A stretch of DNA of 64,000 bases from Calditrichaceae bacterium. Its GTDB lineage: Bacteria; Calditrichota; Calditrichia; Calditrichales; JBFXGD01. The notes below the pieces were generated by a model. That model was given only the letters and a program-made list of their open reading frames with translations. It made no database searches and had not been told where the DNA came from. Both the position numbers and the translations under genes were made by a program. Location of the stretch: assembly GCA_050173015.1 (NCBI GenBank), contig JBFXLE010000009.1:98913-162912 (forward strand), in the 5' to 3' direction. Shown here in pieces: positions 10,306 to 30,479 of this stretch; within the stretch, counting starts at the first letter, position 1, and each line of letters starts with the position of its first letter.

Positions 10306-10345
10306 GCAAGGTTAAGAGCGATACTGCAAAATTGAAAATTAAGAA

Positions 10346-11340: not shown

Positions 11341-11669
11341 CCAAGGCTAAAAAATAGAAACAAAAAGAATAAAATATTTGCCAAAAGGATGAAAATAGAA
11401 CGCCGCCTATGCGGCGTTATTGTTTTGCGACGCGGTTGCTTGCGCAGGGTACGGATTTAAGATATATTCAGGAGTAGTTATGTCATATTAGTCCCGGGAC
11501 GACTGAACTGCACACGTCTCAAATAAGTCAATTGATTGAATAAGGAATTCTGTTGATGATATTTTTGAAAGGGATTAGTTAATCGTAAAAAAAATATATA
11601 AACAATTGTTCATATACCGCTGATTTGGGTGGATAAGAACAATAACATATACACGCACGTTAGGTTGCA
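11341..11669 (+). repeat. Scaffold repeat copy 2: leader, integrase vestige, hairpin, GTT core
   Basis: Starts immediately after the attC-3 core. It translates as TPPMRRYCFATRLLAQGTDLRYIQE*. It carries the hairpin AACGCCGC-ctat-GCGGCGTT followed by attgtttt, and ends GTTAGGT at 11659, 25 bp before the next ATG. Confidence 0.85.
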
Positions 11670-11683
11670 TTAAAAAAGAAACC

Positions 11684-12268
11684 ATGAAACTATATCACAG
11701 ATACAACATAAAGAGAAAACAAGAACATTTATTTTTGGAGTTTATCTTGAATAATATTCCAGGAATAAATTATTTAAAAGAGAATTATCGTCTTACAGAA
11801 AATGAATATGATTCATCAATTGAGATAAAACCCATAATTGATTCATTAAAAAATGACACTTGGTTACCAAAAAAGCGTAAACAAAATTGCATTGACATTT
11901 TACAGGACATTAAACTTAATCATGACAAGGTCGTAGTATTTGAATCGGTTAATAAAATATCATTTGATTTCACTATTAAAATAGATAGTGACTTGTTTTT
12001 CTTTGAATTACACGAAGACCAACACAAGAAGTTAAAAGTAAATAGACAGTCAAAAATATTTGATATCCAAGGAAATGAAATTTTTGTTCCTCGTTATTTA
12101 CAAAGATTATTAAAGGATATTTGGCGCTGGGAGAATCTTGACAACTACAAGATAATTTGGGCTGACTGGTTTATTTCATCATCAAATAAACTTTCTAACT
12201 TGTTGGAAAAAGGAAAAATCGAATACGGAATAGATAATACATTTCAATTTAAAAACTTAGGAATATGA
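11684..12268 (+). CDS. Hypothetical protein, possibly a DUF559/Vsr-like (PD-(D/E)xK-fold) endonuclease
   Basis: 194 aa. SFDFTIKIDSDLFFFELHEDQHKK followed by RYLQRLLKDIWRWENL loosely resembles the DF...(hydrophobic)E.DG..H...D..R..L pattern of DUF559. This is weak, by-eye evidence only. Confidence 0.3.
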   Translation: MKLYHRYNIKRKQEHLFLEFILNNIPGINYLKENYRLTENEYDSSIEIKPIIDSLKNDTWLPKKRKQNCIDILQDIKLNHDKVVVFESVNKISFDFTIKIDSDLFFFELHEDQHKKLKVNRQSKIFDIQGNEIFVPRYLQRLLKDIWRWENLDNYKIIWADWFISSSNKLSNLLEKGKIEYGIDNTFQFKNLGI

Positions 12269-12717
12269 ATATTGAAGAATTGGAACAAAAGATTGCGAAA
12301 CTTAGAAACGAAATAAAAAAGGATACTCTAGAACTTGAGAATGTTCCCGAAAGATTTATTTCAGTAATCAAAGGAGAACTGAAAACAAAAGAAGGTAGAT
12401 TAATTGATTTGGAGTTAAAACTGGATGATTTAATTGAAAATGGAATTACTGATAGGCTGCAAAAGCCAATTGATGAATTACAAGAGAAAATTAAATCGTT
12501 TATTCTTGATTATCAATTTCAATATCCACAGGACAAAGAAATGTTTATCTATCAAATTGCATTTGAAGAAAATGATGATGAACTCTTGATAAGCTTAAAA
12601 CCAAAGGAAAAAACCACAAATCGATTGAACAAATACAACAAGGATTTACTAAAAGTTACAATAGAGAACAAAGTAATACAAGAACCAAAAGCTACTGACC
12701 TTTTATTAAGACTTTAA
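12265..12717 (+). CDS. Hypothetical coiled-coil protein
   Basis: 150 aa. ATGA start/stop overlap with the upstream ORF. The N-terminal 80 aa are heptad-like and charged (EELEQKIAKLRNEIKKDTLELEN...). No motif recognised. Confidence 0.5.
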   Translation: MNIEELEQKIAKLRNEIKKDTLELENVPERFISVIKGELKTKEGRLIDLELKLDDLIENGITDRLQKPIDELQEKIKSFILDYQFQYPQDKEMFIYQIAFEENDDELLISLKPKEKTTNRLNKYNKDLLKVTIENKVIQEPKATDLLLRL

Positions 12718-13149: not shown

Positions 13150-13227
13150 CCACCGCACAAATGGCATATTTGGTTTTTGCCGACGCACAGCCAAACGCTG
13201 AAAAAACCAAAAGAGCCATTTCTTGCC
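13150..13227 (+). repeat. IR-B1: structured inverted repeat of about 75 bp forming the 5' leader of hsdR
   Basis: The arms aaatggcatatttggttttt and aaaaaccaaaagagccattt are 17/20 complementary around a spacer of about 23 nt (gccgacgcacagccaaacgctg). It is homologous to 21722-21795 through to the start codon. Confidence 0.75.
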
Positions 13228-13251
13228 ATCTCACGACTGAAAGATAATGAT

Positions 13252-16098
13252 ATGACAACATATAAAAATCAAAATCCTGAACAAATAGCCAGAGACAAAA
13301 TTGACAAAATGTTAATTGAAGCTGGTTGGATTGTTCAATCTAAAAATGAAGTTGACTTGGGTGCAGGCAGAGGTGTTGCGTTGAGAGAATACCAAACGGA
13401 AACAAAATTTGCGGATTATGTGCTGTTTGTTGACAAAAACCCTGTTGGAATTATTGAGGCAAAAAAAGAAGACGAAGGACATAAACTAACCGTAGCGGAA
13501 GACCAAGCCTCTGAATATGCCAAAGCAAAACTAAAATATTTGGATAACGACCCATTGCCTTTTGTTTTTGAGAGTACCGGAACAATAACCCGTTTTAGAG
13601 ATACACGAGACCCAAAACCAAGAGGGCGACATATTTTTTGGTTTTACCGTCCCGAAACATTGGCGGAATGGCTACAAAAAGATAAAAGTTTAAGAGGTAG
13701 ATTATTAGATATTCCGCAATTAAATGAGACTGGGCTTCGCCCTGCTCAAATTAAGGCGATTAATAACCTTGAACAATCTTTTAAAAAGAACAAGCCAAAA
13801 GCTTTAATACAAATGGCTACCGGAGCAGGTAAAACTTTTACTGCCTGTACTTTTGTGTATCGCTTATTGGAACACGCCAAAGCCAAACGGATTTTATTTT
13901 TGGTTGACACCAAAAACTTAGGAGAACAAGCAGAACAGGAGTTTATGGCTTTTCAGCCCAACGACAGCAATCGCAAATTCACAGAATTGTATAATGTACA
14001 GCGTCTTACTTCAAGCTACATAGCAAGCGATAGTCAGGTTTGTATCTCTACCATTCAACGGATGTATGCCATTTTAAAAGGTGAAGAACTAGACGAAGGA
14101 GCCGAAGATACAAACCCGAACGAATCGACCTGGATGGAACAACAGCGAAATAAAAAACAGGCAATGCCTGTGGAATATTCTGCCAAAGTACCCATTGAAC
14201 AATTCGATTTTATTGTAATTGATGAATGCCACCGCTCTATTTACAATCTTTGGAAACAAGTGTTGGATTATTTCGATGCTTTCCTTATCGGCTTAACTGC
14301 CACACCCGATAAGCGAACTTTTGGCTTTTTTGAGGAAAATGTAGTGAGCGAATATACCTATGAAGAATCTGTGTTGGATGGTGTAAATGTTCCTTACGAT
14401 GTGTACAATATTGAAACTGAAATTTCGCAAAAAGGCAGTGTGATAAAAGCAGGTTGGTTTGTGGACAGACGAGATAAGCTCACCCGAAAAACGCGTTGGC
14501 AACAAGAAGATGAAGACACCGAATATTTGAAAAACGATTTGGATAAAAAGGTCGTTAATCCAAGCCAGATACGGAATATTATTCGCCAATACAAAAAAGC
14601 ATTGGAAACCGAAATTTTCCCGAACAGAAAAGACGAAAATGGAGAATACGAAGTTCCTAAAACACTGGTTTTTGCAAAAACTGACAGCCACGCGGATGAT
14701 ATAATCAAAATCATTCGTAAAGAATTTGACGAAGGCGATGATTTCTGCAAAAAACTGACTTATAAAATAAAAGAAGACCCAAAATCGGTGTTAAACCGTT
14801 TTCGGAATTCATATCATCCCCGCATTGCGGTTACGGTAGATATGATTGCAACGGGAACCGATGTAAAACCTTTGGAAGTGTTGTTGTTTATGCGTGATGT
14901 TAAAAGCACCAACTACTTTGAACAAATGAAGGGTAGAGGAACACGCACCATTAACAAAGATGCTTTTCAGGCAAACAACACCAATGTAAAAGGGGCTTGC
15001 AAAACCCATTTTATTATTGTGGATGCAGTTGGCGTAACAAAGTCGAAGAAAACCGACAGCCGGCCTTTGGAACGCAAACCAACTGTAGCCTTAAAAGATT
15101 TATTGGGAGCGGTAACAATGGGAGTTACCGAAGAAGATTTGTTTCTTTCGCTTGCAAATCGTTTGATACGATTAGAAAAAGAAATTACCGACAAGGAAAA
15201 AGATAAATTACTGGAACATTCCAAAGGCAAAAATCTGAAACAAATCAGCAAAGAATTATTATCGGCTTTTGATAAAGATGAAATTGAAAACAGAGCACAG
15301 GAAAAAATTGAAAAATTCTGTAAAGACGCCCTACAGGGCGTCTCTTCTGCTGCCGATTTATCTCCGGCACAAATAGAATCTTTCCGACAGGACGCACAGA
15401 AAGAATTGATTAATACCGCCGCTTCTACTTTTAACGGAAAGCTGAACGATTATATTGAAAAAGTGCGTATGGAACACGAGCAAATTATCGACAGCCACAA
15501 TATCGACACCGTAACAAAATCGGAATGGGACACCGCTTCGGTGGATAAAGCCAAAGAAACTGTAAAAGATTTTAACGAATACCTCGAAGCCAATCAGGAC
15601 GAGATAAAAGCATTGACCATTTTTTACAAACAACCCTACAACCGCCGAAACATTACCTTTAAAATGATTAAAGATGTGTTTGATAAACTGAAATTGGATA
15701 AACCCACCCTTGCCCCCGATTATGTTTGGGCGGCATACAGCCAATTGGAAGAGGTAAAAAGCAAACAACCGATTGACGAACTCACCGCGTTAATTTCGTT
15801 AATTCGCAGGGCTTGCGGAATTGACAGCGAGTTGAAAGCTTTTGATTCCACCATTGACGAAAATTTCAAAAACTGGATTTTCAAACAAAACGCAGGCAAG
15901 CACAACCGCTTTACAACCGAACAAATGGACTGGCTGCGAGAACTGAAAAATCACGTAGTAAATTCGTATCACATAGAAATTGAAGACCTCGATTATACAC
16001 CCTTTGATGAAAAAGGAGGACGTGGCAAAATGTACCAACTCTTTGGTGCCGAAATGAACGATATTATTAATGAACTTAACGAGGTATTAGCAGCATAA
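13252..16098 (+). CDS. hsdR: Type I restriction enzyme R subunit (HsdR), with an EcoEI-type C-terminal domain
   Basis: The N-terminus KIDKMLIEAGWIV...ADYVLFVD..PVGIIEAKKE is the HsdR_N nuclease fold. It also has helicase motif I (MATGAGKTFT), DECH (IVIDECHRS) and TATP, plus a C-terminal tail like EcoEI_R_C. I prefer the ATG at 13252 over the track start at 13177, which lies inside IR-B1. Confidence 0.85.
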   Translation: MTTYKNQNPEQIARDKIDKMLIEAGWIVQSKNEVDLGAGRGVALREYQTETKFADYVLFVDKNPVGIIEAKKEDEGHKLTVAEDQASEYAKAKLKYLDNDPLPFVFESTGTITRFRDTRDPKPRGRHIFWFYRPETLAEWLQKDKSLRGRLLDIPQLNETGLRPAQIKAINNLEQSFKKNKPKALIQMATGAGKTFTACTFVYRLLEHAKAKRILFLVDTKNLGEQAEQEFMAFQPNDSNRKFTELYNVQRLTSSYIASDSQVCISTIQRMYAILKGEELDEGAEDTNPNESTWMEQQRNKKQAMPVEYSAKVPIEQFDFIVIDECHRSIYNLWKQVLDYFDAFLIGLTATPDKRTFGFFEENVVSEYTYEESVLDGVNVPYDVYNIETEISQKGSVIKAGWFVDRRDKLTRKTRWQQEDEDTEYLKNDLDKKVVNPSQIRNIIRQYKKALETEIFPNRKDENGEYEVPKTLVFAKTDSHADDIIKIIRKEFDEGDDFCKKLTYKIKEDPKSVLNRFRNSYHPRIAVTVDMIATGTDVKPLEVLLFMRDVKSTNYFEQMKGRGTRTINKDAFQANNTNVKGACKTHFIIVDAVGVTKSKKTDSRPLERKPTVALKDLLGAVTMGVTEEDLFLSLANRLIRLEKEITDKEKDKLLEHSKGKNLKQISKELLSAFDKDEIENRAQEKIEKFCKDALQGVSSAADLSPAQIESFRQDAQKELINTAASTFNGKLNDYIEKVRMEHEQIIDSHNIDTVTKSEWDTASVDKAKETVKDFNEYLEANQDEIKALTIFYKQPYNRRNITFKMIKDVFDKLKLDKPTLAPDYVWAAYSQLEEVKSKQPIDELTALISLIRRACGIDSELKAFDSTIDENFKNWIFKQNAGKHNRFTTEQMDWLRELKNHVVNSYHIEIEDLDYTPFDEKGGRGKMYQLFGAEMNDIINELNEVLAA

Positions 16099-17636
16099 TG
16101 AGAGAAGATTGGATTGACGTTGAATTAAAAGATGTTTGCCTAAGTTCAAAGGGAAAGAAACCAAGTGTTTTAGAAAAAAATAATTCTGAAACTGCTAATG
16201 TGCCATATATAAATATCAAAGCTTTTGAGAAAGGTATAATAGAAGAATACACTGATGGTGAAAAATGCAATTTATGTGAAGATGGTGACTTGTTAATGGT
16301 TTGGGATGGTGCAAGGGCTGGGCTTACAGGTAAAGCTAAAAAAGGTGCTGTTGGTTCAACACTAATGAGAATTGAAGAAGTAAAAGGTATTGAAAAGGAA
16401 TATTTATATTATTTTCTTTTATCACTTTTTACAAAGATTAATACAAATCCAAGAGGTGTTGGTATTCCACATGTTGAACCACGAATACTATGGTTGTCAA
16501 AAGTATTAATTGTTAGCAGTCCCATCCAACGAGCAATAGTATCCAAAATCGAAGCCCTGTTTTCCGATTTGGACAACGGCATCGCCAATTTAAAAAAAGC
16601 ACAGGAGCAATTAAAAATATACCGTCAAGCGGTTTTGAAAAAGGCCTTTGAGGGCGAACTCACAAAAGAATGGCGTGAAAAGATTGTACAGACGCCCAAT
16701 TTGGGCGTATCAACGCCCCTGCCAACAGCCGAAGAACTGCTAAAACAAATAAAAGAAGAACGCCAAAACCACTACAACCAACAAATTGAAGACTGGAAAA
16801 AAGCGGTTAAGGAATGGGAGAAAAATGGGAAAGTTGGGAAGAAGCCAAGTAAGCCTAAGCAGCAAAAAGAATTGCCACCTTTAAATGAGGAAGAATTGAA
16901 TGAGCTGCCGAAATTGCCAAAGTCAATGGTATGGACACAACTTGGAAATGTGGTTTGGTCTGTAAAAGATGGACCTCATTTTAGCCCTAAATATTCAAAA
17001 ACTGGTATACCCTTTATCTCAGGTGGGAATATTAGACCAGAAAAAATTGACTTTGAAAAAGTAAAATATATTTCAGAAGAGCTTCATAAGGAACTAAGTC
17101 GAAGATGTAAACCACAATTAGATGACATTCTATACACCAAAGGCGGAACAACTGGAATTGCAAAAGTTAATACATATAAATTTGATTTTAATGTTTGGGT
17201 GCATGTAGCAGTATTAAGACCAATCCAAATGATTTTACCATTATATTTACAACATGTTTTAAATTCTTCTCATTGTTATAAACAATCGCAAGAATATACA
17301 CATGGGGTTGGTAATCAAGATTTAGGTTTAACAAGAATGATTTTAATCACACTGCCTATTTGTTGTAAAGAAGAACAAACCCAAATCGTCCAAGAAATAG
17401 AAAGCCGTTTATCGGTTTGCGACAAAGTAGAGCAAAGCATAACCGAAAGCCTTGAAAAAGCCGAAGCCCTTCGCCAAAGCATTCTTAAAAAAGCATTTGA
17501 GGGCAAATTATTAAGCGAAGCTGAAATAGAACAATGCAAAAAGGCAGCCGATTACGAACCTGCGGCAAAATTGTTGGAACGAATAAAACAGGAAAAAATA
17601 AATAAGGATAATAATAAAAAAACAAAATCAAAATAA
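16098..17636 (+). CDS. hsdS: Type I restriction-modification specificity subunit (HsdS)
   Basis: 512 aa. Two target-recognition halves are each followed by the conserved helix LKKAFEG(E/K)L (at about aa 180 and about aa 470). TAATG overlap with hsdR. The central linker carries a REP-like insertion. Confidence 0.85.
   Translation: MREDWIDVELKDVCLSSKGKKPSVLEKNNSETANVPYINIKAFEKGIIEEYTDGEKCNLCEDGDLLMVWDGARAGLTGKAKKGAVGSTLMRIEEVKGIEKEYLYYFLLSLFTKINTNPRGVGIPHVEPRILWLSKVLIVSSPIQRAIVSKIEALFSDLDNGIANLKKAQEQLKIYRQAVLKKAFEGELTKEWREKIVQTPNLGVSTPLPTAEELLKQIKEERQNHYNQQIEDWKKAVKEWEKNGKVGKKPSKPKQQKELPPLNEEELNELPKLPKSMVWTQLGNVVWSVKDGPHFSPKYSKTGIPFISGGNIRPEKIDFEKVKYISEELHKELSRRCKPQLDDILYTKGGTTGIAKVNTYKFDFNVWVHVAVLRPIQMILPLYLQHVLNSSHCYKQSQEYTHGVGNQDLGLTRMILITLPICCKEEQTQIVQEIESRLSVCDKVEQSITESLEKAEALRQSILKKAFEGKLLSEAEIEQCKKAADYEPAAKLLERIKQEKINKDNNKKTKSK
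16691..16708. repeat. REP-like palindrome a (partial), in frame inside hsdS
   Basis: GACGCCCAATTTGGGCGT, translated as QTPNLGVS in the HsdS central linker. Confidence 0.8.
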
Positions 17637-17687
17637 TTGTGAAACGCGTTGGACGTATTTGTCGCATTTGACGCGTTGGACGCATTG

Positions 17688-17716
17688 GTAGAGACGCCCA
17701 ATTTGGGCGTCTCTAC
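17688..17716. repeat. REP-like palindrome b (29 nt)
   Basis: GTAGAGACGCCCAATTTGGGCGTCTCTAC. It lies between hsdS and the RAYT gene, flanked by cgttggacg motifs and gatccc/gacgac short repeats. Confidence 0.85.
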
Positions 17717-17788
17717 GACGACGATCCCTACGATCCCGATCCCGACGACGACAATATCGTTCACGTTCACAATAACGAAAACAAAAAT

Positions 17789-18400
17789 ATGCCCGATAAA
17801 TTTCAAAACAAATACCGCATACCATCGGCACGATTGCAAACATGGGATTATGGAAGCAATGGAACCTATTTTATAACCATTTGCACCCAAAACCGTGAAC
17901 ATTATTTTGGTGAAATTACAGACGGTAATATGATATTATCCGAAATAGGAATTTTGGCGAACAAATATTGGAATGAAATACCAGAACATTTTCCATTTGT
18001 CAATTTGGATGAATTTGTGGTAATGCCCAACCACGTGCATGGGATTATTATCATTGATAAACCCGATGATGGACGGGATGATGGGCGGGACGTTGGACGG
18101 GACGTTGGACGGGACGTAGAGACGCCCAAATTGGGCGTCTCTACCAATACCAATACCAATACCAATACCAATCATCAAACCGCCACGGCATCCGAAAAAT
18201 GGAAACCGGCATCATTGGGGGTAATTATCAACCAATATAAACGAATGGCAACCATTAAATCGCGTAAAATCCACGCTGATTTTGGTTGGCAATCCCGTTT
18301 TTACGACCAGATCATACGAAACAACGAATCGTATGAAAAAATCAGAAATTATATTGTCAACAACCCATTGAAATGGGAAGAAGATAAATTTTACAATTAA
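17789..18400 (+). CDS. IS200/IS605-family Y1 (HUH) transposase of the REP-associated (RAYT) type
   Basis: 203 aa. NKYRIPSARLQTWDYGSNGTYFITICTQNREHYFG, the HUH motif VVMPNHVHGIIII, and the C-terminal catalytic-Tyr region GWQSRFYDQIIRN. It is interrupted in frame by a low-complexity/REP insert of about 35 aa. Confidence 0.8.
   Translation: MPDKFQNKYRIPSARLQTWDYGSNGTYFITICTQNREHYFGEITDGNMILSEIGILANKYWNEIPEHFPFVNLDEFVVMPNHVHGIIIIDKPDDGRDDGRDVGRDVGRDVETPKLGVSTNTNTNTNTNHQTATASEKWKPASLGVIINQYKRMATIKSRKIHADFGWQSRFYDQIIRNNESYEKIRNYIVNNPLKWEEDKFYN
18071..18172 (+). repeat. Composite in-frame insert in the RAYT gene: 12-mer x4, REP hairpin, hexamer x4.7
   Basis: GGACGGGATGAT/GGGCGGGACGTT/GGACGGGACGTT/GGACGGGACGTA at 18071-18118, the REP palindrome at 18116-18144, and (CAATAC)n at 18145-18172. 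Together these translate as GRDDGRDVGRDVGRDVETPKLGVSTNTNTNTNTN. Confidence 0.9.
18116..18144. repeat. REP-like palindrome c (29 nt), in frame inside the RAYT ORF
   Basis: GTAGAGACGCCCAAATTGGGCGTCTCTAC. Identical to palindrome b except for the flipped centre (aaatt versus aattt). Confidence 0.85.
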
Positions 18401-18415
18401 ATTGAAAGAAATAAT

Positions 18416-19936
18416 ATGTCAGAAAGTGCAATAGTATCAAAAGTGTGGAATTTCGCCAATGTTCTTAGAGACGATGGAGTGGGTTATGGTGATTATTTAG
18501 AGCAAATCACCTATTTGCTTTTCCTAAAAATGGCAGACGAACTTAACAAACCGCCCTACAATAAAGGTTTAAAATTTCCGAAACTCAAAAATGCTGAGGG
18601 TGTTGAATTGCCCGATGCCGAAACCTGCGACTGGCAAACGCTGTCGCAAAAACGTGGTTTGGAATTGGAAAATTTTTACAACCAAATGCTACGAAGTTTG
18701 GGAAGCGAAAAAGGAACGTTGGGGCAAATTTTCGTAAAAAGTCAAAACAAAATACAAGACCCATCAAAACTCTTAAAAATCATTGATATGATTGATAAAG
18801 AGCAATGGAGCTTAATGGGAACCGATGTAAAAGGGAAAATTTACGAAGGTCTTTTAGAGAAAAATGCCGAAGACACCAAAAGCGGTGCAGGGCAATATTT
18901 TACGCCTCGTTCGCTCATCAAAACAATGGTGGCTTGTGTTCGTCCCAAACCCATGAAAACCATTATAGACCCTGCTTGTGGCACTGGCGGTTTCTTTTTG
19001 GCAGCTTACGATTATATCAAAAGTCAGAATTTAGACCAGGAAGAAAAGGAGTTTTTGAAAAACAAAACTTTCTACGGAAACGAAATTGTAGCCAATACAC
19101 GCAGAATGTGTTTGATGAACATGTTTTTGCACAACATTGGCGAAATTGATGGCGAAACACTCATTTCTTCAGCTGATGCTTTGGTTTCGGACAATGGCAT
19201 ACGCTACGATTATGTGCTGGCAAATCCGCCTTTTGGTAAAAAAAGCAGTATGACCATTACCAACGAAGAGGGCAAACTGGAAAAGCAGGATTATACTATC
19301 AATCGTCAGGATTTTGTGGCTACCACAGCCAACAAGCAACTAAACTTTTTGCAACACATAAAAACGCTTTTAAAACTCACAGGCGAAGCAGCCGTTGTAC
19401 TTCCCGATAATGTTTTGTTTGAGGGCGGAGCAGGCGAAACGGTTCGGAAAGAATTGATGAAAACAACCGAATTGCATACAATTTTAAGACTTCCAACAGG
19501 TATATTTTACGCACAAGGTGTAAAAGCAAATGTTTTGTTTTTCGACAACAAACCAGCTTCAAAAGAGGCTTGGACAAAAGATGTTTGGATTTATGATTAT
19601 CGAAGTAACATAAGCCACACATTAAAGAAAAACCCAATGCGATTTGAGCATCTACAGGAATTCGTAAAACTCTACAATCCCGAAAACCGAAATAAAAGAA
19701 CAGAAACGTGGAGCGAAACAAATCCCGAAGGCAGATGGAGAAAGTATAGTTATGCTGAAATCATTGAACGAGATAAAACCAACTTGGATATATTTTGGAT
19801 TAAAGACAAAAGCTTAACCGACTTAGATAATTTACCCGACCCCGATATTTTGGCAAACGAAATCATTGAAAACATTGAAGCCGGATTAAATAGTTTTAAA
19901 GAAATAATGGAAACAATAAACGGAGATGAAAGCTAA
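18416..19936 (+). CDS. hsdM: Type I restriction-modification N6-adenine DNA methyltransferase (HsdM)
   Basis: 506 aa with an HsdM_N-like N-terminus, the SAM motif IIDPACGTGGFF and the catalytic motif LANPPFG. Confidence 0.9.
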   Translation: MSESAIVSKVWNFANVLRDDGVGYGDYLEQITYLLFLKMADELNKPPYNKGLKFPKLKNAEGVELPDAETCDWQTLSQKRGLELENFYNQMLRSLGSEKGTLGQIFVKSQNKIQDPSKLLKIIDMIDKEQWSLMGTDVKGKIYEGLLEKNAEDTKSGAGQYFTPRSLIKTMVACVRPKPMKTIIDPACGTGGFFLAAYDYIKSQNLDQEEKEFLKNKTFYGNEIVANTRRMCLMNMFLHNIGEIDGETLISSADALVSDNGIRYDYVLANPPFGKKSSMTITNEEGKLEKQDYTINRQDFVATTANKQLNFLQHIKTLLKLTGEAAVVLPDNVLFEGGAGETVRKELMKTTELHTILRLPTGIFYAQGVKANVLFFDNKPASKEAWTKDVWIYDYRSNISHTLKKNPMRFEHLQEFVKLYNPENRNKRTETWSETNPEGRWRKYSYAEIIERDKTNLDIFWIKDKSLTDLDNLPDPDILANEIIENIEAGLNSFKEIMETINGDES

Positions 19937-20572: not shown

Positions 20573-21160
20573 ATGGAAATAAAATTTGATGTGGAAATAC
20601 AAGATGAAGAGAAAGAACTTCTGAAAACGATATTACATTGTGATAATGATGAAGACTTAAATAATCTCTTGAATAAATTAGGCCGTTCTTCATTTGAAGA
20701 TATTAGAAGAATGACAATTGGACAAAAAGTATTTACTCGTGGAAGAGATATTTTAGAATATCGGTTATTTAATTTAATAAAGTTTTTCTTCGATGGGAAA
20801 ATACCAGACGAACAAAAAATATGTGATTTATTCCAAATAACGGCAACTGAAAGTCGAGCATTTATTCGCTCAATAATGTCAAAGTATCAATATGACTTAA
20901 AAGAAACAATATCTTCAACATTAAAAGAACAAGTAGAAAATATTCAAAAAGAAGAAAATGAAGAAGTTTATAAACTTTCCATTCAAAACCAGTATTTCAA
21001 AGATGAATTAAATAGAATATTAGGAACAATAGACACAAGTTTACCGATTATTGAAAAAGAGCGGGGAACTATTTCTACTTATGTAATTCAAACATCATCT
21101 TACCAGAAGTTATGTGAACATTTTGGCATTGAACTAGAAGAAGAAAACAATGAAAACTGA
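20573..21160 (+). CDS. Hypothetical protein (possible HTH-containing regulator or sensor)
   Basis: 195 aa with an acidic N-terminus. The ICDLFQITATESRAFIRSIMSKY segment looks like a helix-turn-helix. No family recognised. Confidence 0.45.
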   Translation: MEIKFDVEIQDEEKELLKTILHCDNDEDLNNLLNKLGRSSFEDIRRMTIGQKVFTRGRDILEYRLFNLIKFFFDGKIPDEQKICDLFQITATESRAFIRSIMSKYQYDLKETISSTLKEQVENIQKEENEEVYKLSIQNQYFKDELNRILGTIDTSLPIIEKERGTISTYVIQTSSYQKLCEHFGIELEEENNEN

Positions 21161-21569
21161 TTTACCTAATTTATTAACTGCATCAAGTATTCTATTGGGA
21201 ATTATTACTGCATTATATGGTTTATTTTTTCCTGCGATTAATTCAATTTTAGTAATAAAATCTAAGCCCCATAAGGTTGATAATAAGAAGGCCTACAGTG
21301 AAAGCAAGGATATTATAAAAGCAAAATATATTCCATTATTAATTGGTTCGTTAGTAATTACATTGATAAACATACCAGAGCTGTTTTCTCAATTAAGAAA
21401 TAGTTTTGTTGCAATAAAAACTAGTGGAATAGAGAACACAACATATGATACGTTAACAGCATCATTTATTGTCGTTTGCCTTTTTATGATTTTCATTACG
21501 ATAATGATGATAGCAACTGGTTTTAAGTTAAGAAAGAAAATAAAAGAACTTAATCCAAATGAACAATAA
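21150..21569 (+). CDS. Small 3-TM membrane protein, unknown function
   Basis: 139 aa. It overlaps the upstream ORF by 11 nt. Hydrophobic helices: SSILLGIITALYGLFFPAI, IPLLIGSLVITLINIP and FIVVCLFMIFITIMMIATGF. Confidence 0.5.
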   Translation: MKTDLPNLLTASSILLGIITALYGLFFPAINSILVIKSKPHKVDNKKAYSESKDIIKAKYIPLLIGSLVITLINIPELFSQLRNSFVAIKTSGIENTTYDTLTASFIVVCLFMIFITIMMIATGFKLRKKIKELNPNEQ

Positions 21570-21795: not shown

Positions 21796-21825
21796 TTGTC
21801 AAACGCACATAGACTAAAACTAAAA

Positions 21826-24800
21826 ATGAATGAAGAAATAGTATCAGCAAGTGGAGAAAGAGCAGCAATGGGAGGCTATTTGCCTCAATTTGATGAGTTC
21901 GCTTGGTTTGTCTATTTGAATCTAATAAATAAAAAGCTTGAATGGATACGAATAGCAGACTCCAAGGCTGAAAAACTAGATGATATACAGTATTCTACTC
22001 ATTCAGAAATTCATGCATACCAAGTAAAATGGACTATCGCTGATGCAAATATATCATTTGCAAATTTTACGGATTTGTTTCCTCTTATCACCTCTAGTTG
22101 GAAGAGTTTAAAAACAGCTAATCCTAGCAAAAAAATAATTCCTCATTTAATCACTAACAAACCTATTTCCTCCCACGACAGCTTAAAGGTAGGCGATACA
22201 AAAATCGGTTCATTTCAAGACTTCGTCTCAGAAGTTTGGGTAAAGCTAAAATCAAATCAATCAATTGATGATAAGTGGAAACAAGTTCTTGAGGAACTCA
22301 AAAAGAGTTCAAAACTCAATGATTCTGAATTTGGAGAATTTATCATCTCTTTTGATTTTCAACCAGACTATAAACAAAAACAGTTTAGTATAGGAAATAT
22401 TAAATACTCTAAAGAAGACGAAGACCTTCAACAGATCAGTCGATATATAGTACAAAAAGTTGCTAGCCCGAAAAGAGTCGTTGAATTTACTCGCCAAGAA
22501 ATTATTAAAGAATTAGGTTGGTCTGATAGATTTAAAACAATTTTTAATCACGAGTTAATAGTCGATAGACAAAGATACCAGCCGATTCAATCGACAATTG
22601 ACCTGTTAAATTCAAAGTTAGAGGAGCATAAAAATGGATACCTGTTTTTGCTAGGTGGCCCAGGTTCTGGAAAATCTACCTTATTGAATCAATGGTCAAA
22701 AGGCCTTAAAACACGAATAATACGATACTACGCCTTTGATTTCGTTAATCCATCTTCACACTTAAACTTTTATGAAAGAGGAAATGCTACCCATCTTTTT
22801 TTCGATTTAGTTTTTCAATTAAAGGAAGCTGGAATATATAAAAGAGACATTCTTCCATATAAAGACTTACTTTTTCTAAAAGATGTATTCAATGAGCAAT
22901 TAAGTGCAATTGGAGAGGACTTTGTGACAAATGGTCAATCGACCATAATATTGATTGATGGTCTAGATCATGTTCCTAGGGAATACAAATCAACAACTAA
23001 TAGTTTCCTACGAGAACTTCCTTTACCATCTTCTCTCCCAAACGGGGTCTTCATCATTTTAGGTAGTCAATCTTATGAACTTGAAGACATTCAACAGGAA
23101 ATTAAAACTGAATTTCAGAAAGGAAATAGAACCATTCAAATTGATCCACTTAAAAAGGAGGAAGTATACAAGTACATTGATAATCTTGATACTTCAATTC
23201 AACTTAATGGTTCTCAAAAGCTGCAAATATTTGAGAAATCAGAAGGACACCCGTTATACCTGTCATACTTAATTGAAAAAATCAATAACGCAGATTCTAT
23301 TAACGATACAATCGAATCTTTTGAAGTTATTGATGGTAGTATTGATAATTATTACAAAAAAATATGGGAGCCTATCCAGAAAGAAGATAGCCAAATTCAA
23401 TTCTTAGGTTTAATTGCGAGAATTAATGGTTTGATCAAACTTCAGTTCATTCAGGAATGGGACTTCCAACCGAGTGTTTTAAAGTCCTTTCGTGAAAAGG
23501 CCAGATTTCTGTTTAATGAAACCGAAAAAACTTTGTCTTTCTTTCATAATTCGTTCAAGCAATTCCTTCTTCATCATACCTCTTTAAATTACTTAACAGA
23601 TGAGTTTGATCCGACAATTAACGTCAATTATCATAGTCAACTTACTGATTATTATGTAAAATCAGAGATTGAAAAATCCTGGAAACAGAATCATCACCTA
23701 TTTCAGGCTAAACAATATGATAAGTTTATTTCAGAAGTTACCCCAAATAGTATTACTGAACAGTTACTTAACTTCAGACCAGCAGAAGAAATTAAGCAGG
23801 ATGCAAAATTGGGAGTTGAAATAGCAAGACAGAATAAGGACATTAATACTCTGGTAAGATATCTGTTTTCATTAGCAGAAATTGAAAGAAGATTATTCAA
23901 TATTGATCCCACATCCTTTATAGAAGAACTTTTGTACCTAAATAAATACGACTTAGCAAGGGATTATCTAAGAACTGGCAACACCCTCCATTGTAGCGAA
24001 TCGTACGCATTTAAAGCATGTCGATTGTTTATTGAATCTGGGCACAAATCAGAAGGAGCAACTTTATACAATTTGGCTTATCCAGAAATCATTACAGATT
24101 CCGGGATACATATTGATGATTCTCACAGATATGAAGAAATAAGAGATTCTTTAGAAGAATGGATTTATACTTCTCCCTATTTTGAAGCAACCGAGAATAT
24201 TTTCTCAATAATTGAGAAAATTCAATTCTCAGGTAGCATACGGAAAAACAGGTTTGAAGAAGAAGAATCTGATTTACTTTTAAGGTTACTCTCTAATCTT
24301 GGTTATAGTTTAGTGGATCAAAACAAGTGGGATGATTTTAATAAAGTCATAGAAAAAATAGATTCGAGGTCTTCAAGAGGAAGGAATTCTCTTTTCCAAC
24401 TTATAAAGTACGCTATCGAGCAATGCCTTGACTTAAAAGATAGTAGTCGAGTGAATGAATATCTGTCATTTTTAACCACTCATTTCACAAAAGAGAAGAC
24501 AAAATCCATTGGCAAAATATTCATTGCAGATTTAGTCTATAAAGTCACTAGAGACCTAAATGAAACATATAGTTGGATTAAGGAAGTTGAGCAACCATCT
24601 AATGTGGGTAAAGACCAGCTAGGATATGATGATTCGTTAGACGCCTTTCTTCCATTAATCAAACTTAACAAGTTACTTAACCTATGTGGAAAAGGAGTTT
24701 CGATTACGTCTGCAATTCCATCTGTTGCGAAAGGTACTGATGAAGAAGTTTTAGTGGAGTTTGAACGAATGTTATGTATTACCACTCAAATTCTAGCCGA

Positions 24801-27800
24801 GGGCATTCTTCAAACACCAATGCCAGGTGATCCTATTAAAAGAGTATTTCCAATTGTTCGGTTTTATTACAAAGAAATATCCCACCGAAACAGCTATTGG
24901 TATAAGCTGACACAAGCAAAAGGCCAATATTATGATTTTTTGATTTCGGCGGTGTCTGAATTGGGTACTGAAAAATTAGAATTATTAGGAGATTATTTGT
25001 TCAGTGAGTTTAAGAATATTCCAAAATATTGGAGTACAAGTGTCCAGCGGAAAATCATTAAATCCCTCTTGAATAAAGGGTTTAATGCTAAAAAAGCAGT
25101 AATAAAGTTGAGATCCATAGAGGATTCCATGTTGGAAGGTCACGATATAGATGGCCGTATAACCGAATGCTTGGCCCACTCAAAAGTATGGTTCATTTTA
25201 GGCAAGCTAGATGAAGGTGAAATATGGCTCAAACAGGCTATTCAAGAATCTATTGGAGTAGGATATAGAAAAGATTATCAATTTAGTACATGGATTGAAT
25301 GGTTAAGAAAAATAAACCATAAAGACCCATCAAAAGCTACTGAAAGAATAAAGTGGTTCTTATCTCATTTAAAACATATTAAAGAAACCACGGAGGGAAG
25401 GGCTTATTGGAATGCTTCTGAAGAATTATTAGAAGTCGCATATGAACACAATCTGGAAGATGGCTTAGAGCAGGCTATTTGGCAATTAAAGAACGATCTA
25501 ATAGACTTTAAAGATTCAATTGCTCTTTTCATAAAATATTTTATGATAAAAACAAAAAGTAAAGAAGAGTTCAAAAGTATTGTTCAACTATATAGTGATT
25601 TATATCTGCTTCTTGCTGAATCTGCCAATTCTTCCCTGCTCAAATCTATCTTAGAAAAAGGGCATGAAATTTTAAAAGAAGATTTTTTAGTAGAACATGC
25701 TCAAGCCATTATTTCGGCAATAGAAATTAAAGCTTACGAAGAAACCAGACATTACTTACTATCTGAAATTGATAACTTCTATACATCAAAAGGGCTAAAA
25801 GCAGAAGACTATTATTCACGGTTTAATATACCGGCAAAAAGCGAAAGAAATAGTTCATCAACATCTTCTAACACATTGACTTTAAAGACAGATCATGAAA
25901 AGATTGATGAAAGTGAAGTACTAAAACGAGTTACAAATTTTGAAGATTTCAAAAAAATCATTCAAGAAGAAGATCAGGCAAATTCATTTTTTAATTGGTC
26001 AAAGGTTATAGATAAAATAGCTCCATTATTGTCTTCAAGTCAAATTGAAGAAATCACCAAACTGGCTAGAATAGGAAGGAGAGAGTCAGATTTCTATGCT
26101 AAATTAAGTGAGGCTGCCTTGGAGCTAGAAAACACAGAACTCGCAACTAGTTTAGCCAATAAAAGTATTGAGTTATCGAGCGAATCGGGGTGGGTAAAAT
26201 ATTATGATGGAGGAACAAGAATCAATGCATTTAATGCACTAAAACGAATCAATCCTGCAATATCATCTAATAAGGCATTTGAAGTATTTGCTCATGATAT
26301 AGTAACCAGTAATTATCCAAGTTCATATATCGAACATCTTGAAGACATCGTTCCACTTTTAACAGAAAATTATGTTGAGGAAGAGCTTTGGCATGAAATA
26401 TATGGTTACCTGCAAAGACTGATGTCGAATAGTAAACCGGTTGAGGATTTACCTGTTCTTCCATCATTAAATCGTCCAATCATAGAAACCTTAGTCGATT
26501 ATATGGTGTATTTATCACAGAGTCCCGTCTCAATAATAAAGGAGCAATCTTTACAGCTATTGGCAAAATATATAAATCAAGATAATGACTATGCTTTGAC
26601 TCAATTACTGAATGGACGTTTAGATGATTACTCAAGTATGAACGTGATGATGAAATTAACTGCGTTCAACTCCCCCAAAGTCCATTTGCTTAAATCAAAG
26701 ATCAATAGTTTAGCTATATCAAATGACTATCAATTAAGAGAAAGCTCAAAACAAATACTTTCCTCAATTCAAGAAGAAATTCCAACTCCCAAAAACATCG
26801 AATTATCTAAAGTATACTCTTTCCATATTCCAGAAACTGAAAAACCAGATTTTAGAAAAGAGATTGACCCTTATTTCCCAGAAGTTGATACTAATGACCC
26901 CCGTGATCTGATACGACCATTTGAATTTTTAATCAAAATCTTATCTGAGGAGTCTGGGATTAATGAATCTAACCTTATATATAGAGCCTACTCGATCATG
27001 AAAGAAATTGGTCGAGAGGAGGAATGGTCCGTTGAGTATGAAAAAAAGCTTAGAAATCATTTAGAAGAAATTTACCTAAGATACTCTTACCCTAGACCAA
27101 GGGTAATTGCGGCTCGAAGAGCCATAATGCATGTCACCAATGAATTAATAGATTCTGGAACAATTGATGATGAGCGAATTCAGAAACCTTTTATATCACA
27201 TGATTATGCGGTTCTGTTTTTTAATGAAATAGCAAAACCTGAATTCATTCAAACTATTAAAGAGAGAGATTTTGGAGGAGTTGGCAATGATTGGTTAGAT
27301 CGAATAGGTGAATCAGAAAGATTAAACGAATCAATATTAGACTATAATGATAACTTCAAGATTATTGCAGAATATAATCAAGTTAAAAATTTAGATTGGG
27401 GTTCTCCTACTGAAGAATACATGTACCAAATTGCGGTTAATGAGGAGTTGGATGAAGAAGATAATTACATTTTTGGCTCTGTTTTTCACCAATTAAGCAG
27501 TAACTATCATGATTTGAGAAGTGGTGGACATTTTATTGTTGTAGTCAGGGATCATAGATTTGACCAATTTGATCTGAAATCTAAGTGGATTGCAATTAAC
27601 CCTGTTTTGGCTAGATACTTAGGATGGGAGCCTGAAACAACCAAATTATTTGCTTGGAAAAACTCGCAAGGTGAATTGATGGCGGAATCAATTTATTGGT
27701 CAAATGGAAATATTAACATGACACCTCGTAAGGATGGAGAAGTCGGGGAAGGGTGGTTTGTTATTGTTTCCAAAGATGGATTAGAGAAGATAAAATCTAT

Positions 27801-27897
27801 CGAGAAGAAATTGTTTCTGCAAAAGAAATTAACAAGATCTAAATTTGAAGATTCAGTTCTAATGAATAATCAAGCAATTAGTGTGACAAAAATTTGA
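21826..27897 (+). CDS. Giant STAND-type P-loop NTPase with an N-terminal Cap4/DUF4297-like PD-(D/E)xK nuclease and a long helical-repeat C-terminus (Avs-like antiviral ATPase candidate)
   Basis: The N-terminus SGERAAMGGYLPQFDEFAW...AEKLDDIQYS..EIHAYQVKW matches the DUF4297 pattern (GG..GF.YQ ... E..DD ... QVK). Walker A is FLLGGPGSGKSTLLNQW and Walker B is TIILIDGLDHV, followed by about 1500 aa of helical sequence. I prefer the ATG at 21826 over the TTG at 21796. Confidence 0.65.
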   Translation: MNEEIVSASGERAAMGGYLPQFDEFAWFVYLNLINKKLEWIRIADSKAEKLDDIQYSTHSEIHAYQVKWTIADANISFANFTDLFPLITSSWKSLKTANPSKKIIPHLITNKPISSHDSLKVGDTKIGSFQDFVSEVWVKLKSNQSIDDKWKQVLEELKKSSKLNDSEFGEFIISFDFQPDYKQKQFSIGNIKYSKEDEDLQQISRYIVQKVASPKRVVEFTRQEIIKELGWSDRFKTIFNHELIVDRQRYQPIQSTIDLLNSKLEEHKNGYLFLLGGPGSGKSTLLNQWSKGLKTRIIRYYAFDFVNPSSHLNFYERGNATHLFFDLVFQLKEAGIYKRDILPYKDLLFLKDVFNEQLSAIGEDFVTNGQSTIILIDGLDHVPREYKSTTNSFLRELPLPSSLPNGVFIILGSQSYELEDIQQEIKTEFQKGNRTIQIDPLKKEEVYKYIDNLDTSIQLNGSQKLQIFEKSEGHPLYLSYLIEKINNADSINDTIESFEVIDGSIDNYYKKIWEPIQKEDSQIQFLGLIARINGLIKLQFIQEWDFQPSVLKSFREKARFLFNETEKTLSFFHNSFKQFLLHHTSLNYLTDEFDPTINVNYHSQLTDYYVKSEIEKSWKQNHHLFQAKQYDKFISEVTPNSITEQLLNFRPAEEIKQDAKLGVEIARQNKDINTLVRYLFSLAEIERRLFNIDPTSFIEELLYLNKYDLARDYLRTGNTLHCSESYAFKACRLFIESGHKSEGATLYNLAYPEIITDSGIHIDDSHRYEEIRDSLEEWIYTSPYFEATENIFSIIEKIQFSGSIRKNRFEEEESDLLLRLLSNLGYSLVDQNKWDDFNKVIEKIDSRSSRGRNSLFQLIKYAIEQCLDLKDSSRVNEYLSFLTTHFTKEKTKSIGKIFIADLVYKVTRDLNETYSWIKEVEQPSNVGKDQLGYDDSLDAFLPLIKLNKLLNLCGKGVSITSAIPSVAKGTDEEVLVEFERMLCITTQILAEGILQTPMPGDPIKRVFPIVRFYYKEISHRNSYWYKLTQAKGQYYDFLISAVSELGTEKLELLGDYLFSEFKNIPKYWSTSVQRKIIKSLLNKGFNAKKAVIKLRSIEDSMLEGHDIDGRITECLAHSKVWFILGKLDEGEIWLKQAIQESIGVGYRKDYQFSTWIEWLRKINHKDPSKATERIKWFLSHLKHIKETTEGRAYWNASEELLEVAYEHNLEDGLEQAIWQLKNDLIDFKDSIALFIKYFMIKTKSKEEFKSIVQLYSDLYLLLAESANSSLLKSILEKGHEILKEDFLVEHAQAIISAIEIKAYEETRHYLLSEIDNFYTSKGLKAEDYYSRFNIPAKSERNSSSTSSNTLTLKTDHEKIDESEVLKRVTNFEDFKKIIQEEDQANSFFNWSKVIDKIAPLLSSSQIEEITKLARIGRRESDFYAKLSEAALELENTELATSLANKSIELSSESGWVKYYDGGTRINAFNALKRINPAISSNKAFEVFAHDIVTSNYPSSYIEHLEDIVPLLTENYVEEELWHEIYGYLQRLMSNSKPVEDLPVLPSLNRPIIETLVDYMVYLSQSPVSIIKEQSLQLLAKYINQDNDYALTQLLNGRLDDYSSMNVMMKLTAFNSPKVHLLKSKINSLAISNDYQLRESSKQILSSIQEEIPTPKNIELSKVYSFHIPETEKPDFRKEIDPYFPEVDTNDPRDLIRPFEFLIKILSEESGINESNLIYRAYSIMKEIGREEEWSVEYEKKLRNHLEEIYLRYSYPRPRVIAARRAIMHVTNELIDSGTIDDERIQKPFISHDYAVLFFNEIAKPEFIQTIKERDFGGVGNDWLDRIGESERLNESILDYNDNFKIIAEYNQVKNLDWGSPTEEYMYQIAVNEELDEEDNYIFGSVFHQLSSNYHDLRSGGHFIVVVRDHRFDQFDLKSKWIAINPVLARYLGWEPETTKLFAWKNSQGELMAESIYWSNGNINMTPRKDGEVGEGWFVIVSKDGLEKIKSIEKKLFLQKKLTRSKFEDSVLMNNQAISVTKI

Positions 27898-27904
27898 CCA
27901 TGAA

Positions 27905-27990
27905 TCCAAACGCTCGCATCCATACACATTGGCAAATCGCACAGGACAGCCACACCAGCCAAAATTTGCCAAAGAGTATGGCTGCACCAA
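27905..27990 (+). repeat. IR-B4: structured inverted repeat immediately downstream of the STAND gene
   Basis: The arms catacacattggcaaat and atttgccaaagagtatg form the repeat. Relative to IR-B2, both arms changed together (tttgcaatt/aattgcaaa became ttggcaaat/atttgccaa). Confidence 0.75.
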
Positions 27991-28023
27991 CGCCGCCAGA
28001 AAAGAAAATGAAAAAGCACGGGC

Positions 28024-28145
28024 ATACAACAATGTGTATAATTCATAAGGGTTTCAGCGGATTGCAAGCCGTATCACCCGCATCAAATTCGGGTGGTAAC
28101 TTGATAAGTAAAAAGTTCGCAATCCCTTACGAATCATAGTTAGCT
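28024..28145 (+). repeat. attC-like site 7 (subtype Y), last in the array
   Basis: catACAACaatgtgtataattcataaggg pairs with cccttacgaatcataGTTAGCt. The centre (gggtttcagcgg...ggtaacttgataag) is homologous to attC-3. Confidence 0.6.
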
Positions 28146-28659: not shown

Positions 28660-30057
28660 ATGATAAAAACGATCATTTTTCTCATCGCCATAAGTATTGC
28701 ATCGCAACTCAATGCTCAAAGCAAAGAATCTCTTTCTCCAATAATATTTATTTATGATGCCAGTGGCTCTATGTGGGGTCGGATACAAGGCGAAACAAAA
28801 ATGGAGATTGGCGCTGATGTCTTATCTGCCGCTGTAAATAGCCTTCCCGATAATCAAAAAACAGGATTTGTCGTCTACGGTCACCGTAAGGAGGGTGATT
28901 GCGCCGATGTGGAGTTTCTGGTTGATGTTGAAAGTGGAACAAAAGCTGATGTTATTCAAGCGGTTAAGGGGATAAAGCCGCTCGGAAAAACGCCTTTGGC
29001 ATATTCCGCTTTACAGGTGATGAATAGAATGCGTCAAACCAAATTTAAAGCAACCATTATATTAATTACTGATGGAATAGAATCTTGTGACGGAGATATT
29101 TGTGATGTGATACAAGCTGCTAAAAAAGAAGGTATTGATTTTAAACTTCATATAGTTGGGTTTGGTTTAAAAGACGCAGATACCCGGCAATTAAAATGCG
29201 CTGCCGACGCGGGAGGCGGAAATTATTATAACGCGGAAGATGCCGGTGGTTTAGGTGATGTTTTAGGTGAAGCGTCTAGTATGACTGTTGACGAGCCGAA
29301 AGGAAATTTTTCGGTATTTGCCGGAAAAAATGGTGTGGCTATAGATGCCTGGGTAAAAGCCTTTGATATTGTAAGCAAACGAAAGCCGGTCATGGTTCGA
29401 ACCTACCAGGATACCGCCTATTTTTATTTACCTCCCGGTACATACAATTTTGAAGTGGTCCCTTTGGAGGGGAGTGATATGGATATGATAACCGTTTCTA
29501 ACATTGAAAGTTTTGAAAATAAAATGACGCATCAAACCATTTCTTTCGATGGAGGAAAACTTGGTATTACCACAACCAACAATGGAAAAAACTGGGATTG
29601 TATCGTGAAATTAATCGACCAAAAAGGAAAGGTCGCCGCGTCAGTTCGAACCTACTCCGCGCCAAAAGAAGTGGAAGTAAATCCAGGCTCTTATAAAGTT
29701 TCCATTCAGGCATTAGCTATGGAAGGAATAAATACCTATACAGAATTAGAAAATAATGTTATCCGGGCTGGCGGTATGACACCGGTTTCGTATGATTTCA
29801 AAACCGGTAATTTTGAAATATTTACAAAAGCAGGTAATGAAAATATAGACGCTGCTGTCTCCTTAAAAGAAATGATTTCCGGTAAAAGCGTCGCCGGGTC
29901 ACGTACCTACACGAAAGGGGCAAAATTTCTGCTCAATCCCGGCACATATGAAGTAAAAGTTGTGCCGCTGGGATCTCATAAGGGTAAAGACGCTCAAATA
30001 TTTACTATACAGGTAAAACAAGGTGAACTTACCACTAAAGAAGTGAAATTTTTCTGA
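28660..30057 (+). CDS. Secreted von Willebrand factor type A (vWA) domain protein
   Basis: Signal peptide, the MIDAS motif IFIYDASGSMWG, ILITDGIESCDG, and a repetitive beta-rich C-terminus. Confidence 0.75.
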   Translation: MIKTIIFLIAISIASQLNAQSKESLSPIIFIYDASGSMWGRIQGETKMEIGADVLSAAVNSLPDNQKTGFVVYGHRKEGDCADVEFLVDVESGTKADVIQAVKGIKPLGKTPLAYSALQVMNRMRQTKFKATIILITDGIESCDGDICDVIQAAKKEGIDFKLHIVGFGLKDADTRQLKCAADAGGGNYYNAEDAGGLGDVLGEASSMTVDEPKGNFSVFAGKNGVAIDAWVKAFDIVSKRKPVMVRTYQDTAYFYLPPGTYNFEVVPLEGSDMDMITVSNIESFENKMTHQTISFDGGKLGITTTNNGKNWDCIVKLIDQKGKVAASVRTYSAPKEVEVNPGSYKVSIQALAMEGINTYTELENNVIRAGGMTPVSYDFKTGNFEIFTKAGNENIDAAVSLKEMISGKSVAGSRTYTKGAKFLLNPGTYEVKVVPLGSHKGKDAQIFTIQVKQGELTTKEVKFF

Positions 30058-30479
30058 TGAAAAAAGGATTTAAACCAGCCGGTATTGCCTTTTATTTTTT
30101 AACGCTTATTGTATTTTTTATTATTGGGATTTACATAGCGGGATTTGTCGGAGCAGGAAAGAATCAAATGTTAGCCGGGGGAGCCATCGTTGTAGGATGG
30201 GGAGTTTTATTTGCCGCTATTGCCTTTTTTGCTTCTTTCTTTATCGCTTATTATGCGCAGCACAGGAACATCGTACGCCTTAATTGGATATTATTAGTGT
30301 TGTTAGTGATTCTCTACGGAATTACTCAGTATCGTTATATCGAACGTCAAAAAGAAAAGAAAAATGAGGAGATCAGGAAAGAACAGCCCCAAAAGAAAAC
30401 GACAAAGTCTGTTCCTGTGGAGCCATCTTCAATGACCTATGAAAAAATTGCATTGAAAAAGAGTCCCATTGAAATATAG
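30057..30479 (+). CDS. Small membrane protein
   Basis: 140 aa. TGATG overlap with the vWA gene. Four hydrophobic helices and a charged C-terminal tail. Confidence 0.55.
   Translation: MKKGFKPAGIAFYFLTLIVFFIIGIYIAGFVGAGKNQMLAGGAIVVGWGVLFAAIAFFASFFIAYYAQHRNIVRLNWILLVLLVILYGITQYRYIERQKEKKNEEIRKEQPQKKTTKSVPVEPSSMTYEKIALKKSPIEI

Follow-up and report, generated by a model that had tools for sequence, protein, structure and literature searches.

Gene and gene product

The stretch analysed here (hereafter the window) comprises 64,000 nucleotides of contig JBFXLE010000009.1 of a Calditrichaceae bacterium, and carries a complete coding sequence of 2,023 amino acids (aa) plus stop at 21826..27897. The encoded protein is very probably a one-protein Avs receptor, which belongs to the Avs1 clade by descent of its NTPase and sensor and bears an effector of the Cap4 type. 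Every open reading frame (ORF) and domain of the window whose coordinates are given below lies on the + strand.

The coding sequence was delimited from the ORF list, its translation and the length of the homologues. When the first in-frame TTG is included, the ORF extends over 21796-27897 and forms a single intact reading frame; the ATG at 21826 was considered as the true start because homologues begin at this position with M-[SN]-E-E-I. The product (2,023 aa) and its nearest relatives are equally long. An earlier reading of the letters and their ORFs, referred to below as the original prediction, had described a protein of about 2020 aa and quoted a series of motifs, all of which were found in this one long ORF. 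Conservation of these motifs reaches at least 95% across more than 110 full-length homologues (2011-2046 aa). A promoter and terminator scan gave a signal no higher than the shuffled expectation. Residues are called invariant below when they never vary in a broad alignment of 35 sequences, in which identity goes down to 22%.

N-terminal effector domain

The first domain (aa 1-255; 21826..22590) is identified as a Cap4/DUF4297-type PD-(D/E)xK nuclease, acting as effector, on the combined basis of its modelled fold, of transitive matches and of invariant residues, and DNA cleavage is predicted for it. AlphaFold2 models cover aa 1-262 (mean predicted local distance difference test score, pLDDT, of 77) and aa 1345-2023 (mean pLDDT of 86). 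Comparison of the first model with the PDB using Foldseek gave the Cap4 domain of SeAvs3 as the top and only strong match (8dgc_A, E 4.4e-6, probability 1.0, 261 columns), followed by weaker matches to HerA-DUF4297 (9c1m) and then to the Lamassu protein LmuA (9nxx, 9hr5, 9uxh), all of which are of the Cap4 type.

An exhaustive HMMER search with a profile of the N-terminal domain returned 759 cluster representatives (260 of them at E<=1e-30), which are nearly all 1900-2100 aa long and mostly 2000-2080 aa. One of these relatives (P0260, E 1.3e-43 to the N-terminal profile), which aligns end to end with the query protein at 26% identity, matches the Pfam Cap4_nuclease family PF14130 (E 3.9e-5, 24.4 bits, below the cut-off of 26.2), and another (P0225) matches the PADLOC SAVED_PDDEXK (Cap4) model at 3.6e-9. 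A 30-sequence N-terminal profile found no relative by sequence among solved structures, and word-indexed searches with the N-terminal domain and with a C-terminal profile recovered nothing but fragments of this family, with no other architecture.

The first helix of the nuclease fold carries the motif GERAAMGGYLPQFDEF (aa 10-25; 21853..21900), in which G10, G17 and Q21 are invariant. The putative catalytic core AEKLDDIQ...HAYQVKW (aa 48-69; 21967..22032) is made of AEKLDDIQYS (aa 48-57) and HAYQVKW (aa 63-69), with D52, D53, Q66 and K68 invariant down to the most distant sequences. The pattern formed by these seven residues is the helix-1 G..G(F/Y)..Q, DD and QxK signature of Cap4/DUF4297 nucleases. 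The DUF4297/Cap4-like nuclease first proposed is hence borne out by the SeAvs3 fold match, by the links through the two relatives and by the four conserved residues of the core, and the N-terminus does match a nuclease fold.

STAND NTPase

The following domain (aa 256-600; 22591..23625) is, as judged by Pfam, PADLOC and NCBIfam matches, a NACHT-like STAND NTPase with nucleotide-binding, helical and winged-helix subdomains. Pfam matches cover aa 257-481 (NACHT, 27.8 bits for a cut-off of 26.7, NPHP3_N and related P-loop families), and HTH_TANC1 is weakly matched over aa 559-647. The Walker A motif GGPGSGKST is located at aa 277-285 (22654..22680; G277, G280, G282, K283 and S284 invariant). The Walker B motif IILIDGLDHV (aa 374-383) is part, with the motif that follows it, of IILIDGLDHVPREY (aa 374-387; 22945..22986; D378, G379, L380, D381, R385 and E386 invariant). 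Both Walker motifs were thus present as first described, and they are conserved throughout the broad alignment. In the helical subdomain, the GxP motif EGHPLYL (aa 473-479; 23242..23262; G474, P476 and L477 invariant) aligns with GHPLYLRYL of Avs1b. The winged-helix motif FFHNSFKQFL (aa 572-581; 23539..23568), which contains His574 (F572, H574, S576 and F577 invariant), aligns through FFHNSF with the corresponding motif of Avs1b.

Avs1b is also the sole defence-system model matched in PADLOC and NCBIfam, the PADLOC match (2.4e-39) pairing aa 259-587 with model positions 211-533 of 1924. Distant members of the family from Pantoea, Proteus and Pseudoalteromonas likewise match the Avs1b model in the NTPase only.

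Sensor region

The NTPase is followed by a predicted helical sensor resembling tetratricopeptide repeats (TPR) (aa 601-1838; 23626..27339), with a Ser-rich linker at aa 1339-1350, delimited by profile-profile alignment with Avs1b and, for aa 1345-1830, by the second AlphaFold2 model. Some 1500 aa of helical sequence had been described here: aa 1345-1830 are indeed helical in the model, whereas for aa 600-1344 the assignment comes from homology to the helical repeats of Avs1b only.

For this comparison, a set of 69 Avs1b proteins was used, four of them taken from avs1a-avs1b-avs1c operons on plasmids of Vibrio, Cupriavidus, Priestia and Chimaeribacter, and 65 being full-length sequences from metagenomes. 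Alignment of the family with this set using hhalign gave a probability of 100% (E 2.8e-58, 1621 columns) and paired query positions 265-2016 with positions 230-1943 of 1961 in Avs1b. With the four operon sequences only, the alignment ended at aa 1625 and left the C-terminus unaligned; with all 69, it reaches the end. Taken piecewise, the likeness is significant up to aa ~1750: aa 600-1000 were aligned at 98.8% (E 1.4e-16, 372 columns), aa 1000-1344 at 85.3% (E 5.9e-6, 178 columns) and aa 1345-1830 at 96.1% (E 3e-9, 304 columns), as compared to 0.3-1.6% (E 0.03-0.18) for reversed-sequence controls. The N-termini, Cap4 on one side and the Avs1b protease on the other, gave 0.2% (E 0.36, 56 columns). 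On these sequence comparisons, the sensor is of the Avs1 type over at least about 1150 aa, and the effectors of the two proteins are unrelated.

The last part of the protein (aa 1839-2023; 27340..27894) is a domain rich in beta strands, with WIAINP, LFAW, ESIYWSNGN and GEGW motifs, FIVVVRDHRFDQF being found at aa 1903-1915 and GEGWFVIVSKDG at aa 1974-1985. In the model of aa 1345-2023, helices give way at about aa 1830 and aa 1844-2022 consist mainly of strands, in agreement with the distinct beta-rich C-terminal module of the original prediction. In a Foldseek search of the PDB with this model, the best matches were the A and B chains of SeAvs3 (E 7.5e-9 and 8.6e-9; probability 1.0, 763-844 columns), and a designed TPR protein ranked next (E 0.013). 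Near-invariant columns make up 9.2% of the C-terminal domain vs 2-4% of the rest of the sensor, of which it is the most constrained part; this constraint would fit a contact with an invariant ligand.

Relation to Avs1 and Avs3

The protein shares with Avs1 a homologous NTPase and nearly the whole sensor, and the two are of similar length downstream of the effector (1761 aa from the NTPase start vs about 1708 aa in Avs1b). It differs from Avs1b by its effector, which is a Cap4-type nuclease instead of a trypsin-like protease, and by its last 190 aa, which are not significantly alike in sequence. Avs1 operons moreover include avs1a, encoding a metallo-beta-lactamase (MBL)-fold hydrolase, and avs1c, whereas such partners are neither present at the query locus nor conserved in 70 homologous loci; the neighbouring genes of the window have no MBL domain. 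A predicted Cap4-type nuclease here replaces both the Avs1 protease and its MBL-hydrolase partner gene.

With Avs3 (SeAvs3, 8DGC), the protein has in common the Cap4-like effector, the domain order, the length (2023 vs 2028 aa) and the structural matches, SeAvs3 being the best and only strong one at either end (N-terminal domain and C-terminal 679 aa). These traits could designate an Avs3 (AVAST type 3) orthologue rather than an Avs1 relative, a possibility that is considered very unlikely in view of the sequence comparisons: Avs3 models of PADLOC and NCBIfam gave no match at E<=1, whereas Avs1b matches; neither phmmer nor the narrow and broad family profiles found the 8dgc sequence; and HMMER profiles reveal no similarity between Avs3 and the query family, whose NTPase is closer to Avs1b. 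Furthermore, no solved Avs1 structure turned up in any of the searches, and SeAvs3 may just be the closest structure available, since the predicted structure of Avs1 is reported to be strongly similar to Avs3 (PMC13601566). The preferred assignment thus remains the Avs1 clade. The protein is best described as predicted to work like SeAvs3 and descending with Avs1, and it falls outside both typed AVAST type 1 and Avs3 as strictly defined. As to whether it matches an already typed Avs family from end to end, the typed hidden Markov models align with the NTPase only, and the profile-profile alignment with Avs1b is largely end to end, except for the effector.

Effector swapping among Avs families is documented in the literature, and is reportedly a main point of Gao et al. 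2022. The present family would be a clear example of it, a Cap4 nuclease taking the place of the protease and MBL pair while the sensor scaffold is otherwise conserved. With it, the Avs1-3 group of terminase-type sensors would gain an unannotated branch that is both large and phylogenetically broad. Current PADLOC and NCBIfam models cover its NTPase only, and the family is consequently missed. The protein belongs to a known defence class and does not challenge current understanding. Lee et al. 2026 list 198 STAND clades associated with defence and 684 clusters of sensors, and a family this common is probably already in that catalogue.

Distribution and mobility

A search of 5.8 billion proteins provided the full-length relatives mentioned above (more than 110, 41-100% identity), which come from Flavobacteriia, Cytophagia, Sphingobacteriia and Bacteroidia and are labelled 'NACHT domain-containing', 'ATP-binding' or 'hypothetical'. 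In the 185,579 species genomes scanned, at least 480 matches were confirmed. Proteins from different Bacteroidota families and classes (e.g. Psychroflexus, Croceimicrobium, Marixanthomonas, Flexithrix) are 84-88% identical, and matches are also found in bins labelled Hyphomicrobiales and Patescibacteria; this suggests that the gene was recently transferred horizontally, or else that contigs were mis-binned. More distant relatives, full-length and 25-28% identical, were found in Pantoea, Proteus, Pseudoalteromonas, Acidobacteriota, Dehalococcoidia, Nitrospira, Geobacteraceae and others.

Plasmid-borne relatives were found in Vibrio cholerae, Nitrosococcus and rhizobia, and on IncHI2 plasmids of Enterobacteriaceae. 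In the Salmonella IncHI2 plasmid pX1-88, a 2021-aa 'ATP-binding protein' encoded at 5938-12003 is a full-length relative with 22% identity, and the same IncHI2 relative was found in Salmonella, Klebsiella, Enterobacter, Citrobacter and E. coli. IncHI2, a clinically widespread plasmid lineage, would thus carry an unannotated Cap4-STAND protein. In Tenacibaculum jejuense (LT899436.1), the homologue is inside a CTnDOT-like conjugative element; among the Tenacibaculum and Epilithonimonas loci examined, such homologues sit between tra genes and relaxase/coupling-protein genes, and others come immediately downstream of a DUF4099/DUF3945/Toprim gene. The Epilithonimonas homologue adjoins SIR2-HerA, and a Chryseobacterium homologue is near AbiJ.

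Clustering of the flanking ORFs of 70 loci revealed no widely conserved neighbour, the best cluster being a DUF4099/DUF3945/Toprim conjugative-element gene present upstream in 10 of them. In the window, the gene is placed beside a Thoeris system and a type I restriction-modification (R-M) system. Both observations agree with the single-gene defence cassette that had been proposed for this locus.

The many homologues in CTnDOT-like elements and on conjugative plasmids, and the conjugative-element gene upstream in some loci, could alternatively suggest that the protein is not anti-phage at all, and would be a STAND regulator or a cargo of conjugative elements serving, for example, to exclude competing plasmids or elements. 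This explanation is regarded as extremely unlikely, considering that the effector is a nuclease of the type used by CBASS, Lamassu and Avs, that the protein is homologous to an experimentally validated defence family, that defence genes surround it in the window and in other loci, and that mobile elements normally carry defence cargo. As an anti-phage receptor, the family could explain phage resistance that marine and gut Bacteroidota owe to conjugative elements.

Proposed mode of action

The reading as a whole, i.e. an Avs1-clade Cap4-STAND protein acting as a terminase-triggered abortive nuclease and spreading as a mobile stand-alone cassette, is considered probable. The nature of its output is suggested by related nucleases. 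Cap4/DUF4297 nucleases of CBASS, LmuA and HerA-DUF4297 have the same fold (9c1m, 9nxx, 9hr5) and the same G..G(F/Y)..Q, E..DD, QxK pattern, and non-specific DNA cleavage after oligomerisation is the likely common function; the query nuclease differs in being fused to a STAND NTPase, whereas the others pair with SAVED, SMC-like or HerA proteins, and in lying below PF14130 detection. Cap4 domains of SeAvs3 and SeAvs7 become active by tetramerising (PMC13581612), and a tetramer-activated double-stranded DNA nuclease, as in SeAvs3, is the likely common output with the query protein. SeAvs7, which senses the major capsid protein, has the same Cap4-STAND-TPR plan, with an autoinhibited monomer and an active tetramer (PMC13581612); no similarity to its sensor turned up in a PDB copy that may lack SeAvs7 structures.

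By analogy with SeAvs3 and SeAvs7, the protein would be a monomer in the uninfected cell, its nuclease being held inactive. When a tailed phage infects the cell, a conserved phage protein, most likely the large terminase subunit, would be bound by the helical sensor (aa ~600-1838) together with the C-terminal domain (aa 1839-2023), as suggested by Avs1b homology and by fold similarity to SeAvs3. The ATP-bound NTPase, whose motifs are seen in the sequence (K283, D378/D381, GxP at 474-476, H574), would then oligomerise, probably as a tetramer. The assembled Cap4 domains, through their conserved residues D52/D53, Q66 and K68, would cut double-stranded DNA indiscriminately and lead to abortive infection. 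The gene would travel on its own, as a cassette carried by conjugative elements, plasmids and defence islands.

The large terminase as trigger is slightly favoured by homology: Avs1, Avs2 and Avs3 are terminase sensors (PMC13601566). The original prediction had proposed a sensor specificity outside Avs1-4, a view that is not supported, given the NTPase and sensor homology to Avs1b, a member of a terminase-sensing family. It had also regarded the C-terminal module as an extra one, which does not hold either, since the C-terminal sensor of both Avs2 and Avs3 is rich in beta strands and binds the terminase ATPase (PMC13601566), and since the length is similar to that of Avs1b. Such a module is a hallmark of terminase-sensing Avs and is therefore no sign of a new specificity.

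Several results weigh against the reading proposed here. The trigger is assigned entirely from homology. Pfam DUF4297/Cap4 (PF14130) gave no match at E<=10, either with the whole protein or with aa 1-260. The NCBIfam Avs1b match (3e-30) covers model positions 211-532 alone and, at 104.3 bits, is far below the equivalog cut-off of 1500. Searches of solved structures by sequence (with the protein, the N-terminal, close-family and broad profiles, and two distant relatives) found no Avs structure. The SeAvs3 match of the C-terminal model has a root mean square deviation of 17 A, a high value attributed to the piece being flexible and multi-domain, and is a match of the 679-aa piece as a whole. Aligned separately, aa 1830-2023 and the Avs1b C-terminus gave a non-significant 5.6% (E 0.0069, 103 columns), and PADLOC models searched against the last 700 aa of eight family members gave no match. 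In Avs2 and Avs3, this domain is the one that contacts the terminase.

The same results on the C-terminal domain leave room for another trigger: with the Avs architecture and nuclease output unchanged, the sensor would see a phage protein other than the large terminase, or would have been retargeted to a lineage-specific feature of Bacteroidota phages. That the domain resembles neither the Avs1b C-terminus significantly nor any PADLOC Avs model, yet is more constrained than any other part of the sensor, would suit this explanation, as would published work showing that Avs sensors of unrelated appearance can have a common target and that a single Avs2 can sense several proteins (PMC11564622; PMC13581612). 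It is nonetheless judged unlikely, given that the sensor is homologous to Avs1b over about 1500 aa, that the C-terminal 679 aa match, among solved structures, only SeAvs3, a terminase sensor, and that terminase recognition is retained in both Avs2 and Avs3 although their helical domains differ greatly (PMC13601566). A more specific version, in which the C-terminal domain would have retargeted an Avs1-type scaffold to a non-terminase trigger (another conserved protein of Bacteroidota phages or a protein of competing conjugative elements), is quite unlikely; if true, this widespread Cap4-STAND family would represent a new sensor specificity.

Genomic island

The Cap4-STAND gene lies in a region of ~7.0-30.5 kb of the window whose G+C content (about 0.31-0.39) is lower than that of the flanks (0.41-0.46), and which is located between two housekeeping genes, coding for an M49 peptidase and a major facilitator superfamily (MFS) transporter. 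No integrase and no flanking tRNA were seen for this island, the sole tRNA (Ala) being at 53885-53958. The low-G+C region looks like a defence island.

At its left side, PADLOC identified a Thoeris system (7343-8751), made of a ThsB TIR protein (ThsB1, 1e-73) and a ThsA Macro protein (ThsA1, 1.7e-39) encoded with a 4-nucleotide overlap. The 285-aa ORF that follows (8968-9825) matches the PADLOC Stk2 kinase over its first ~120 aa (5e-10), with no Pfam match, and may be a truncated or divergent defence kinase beside Thoeris. The type I R-M system (13177-19936) comprises, in this order, hsdR (973 aa), hsdS (512 aa), a 203-aa ORF (17789-18400) with no Pfam or PADLOC match, and hsdM (506 aa). Five ORFs of 139-294 aa, located at 10346-12717 and 20573-21569, have no significant Pfam or PADLOC match and could be uncharacterised defence or mobile-element genes; the 139-aa one has a sub-threshold MpPF26 match only.

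Downstream of the Cap4-STAND gene, an 81-aa ORF with a TTG start (27894-28139) overlaps its stop codon by 4 nucleotides. This ORF has no Pfam match and no counterpart in the homologous loci examined, where the next called gene is on the opposite strand, and probably does not represent a gene. The right edge of the island is formed by a VWA-domain protein (465 aa) followed, with a one-base overlap, by a DUF6077-like protein of 140 aa (28660-30479).

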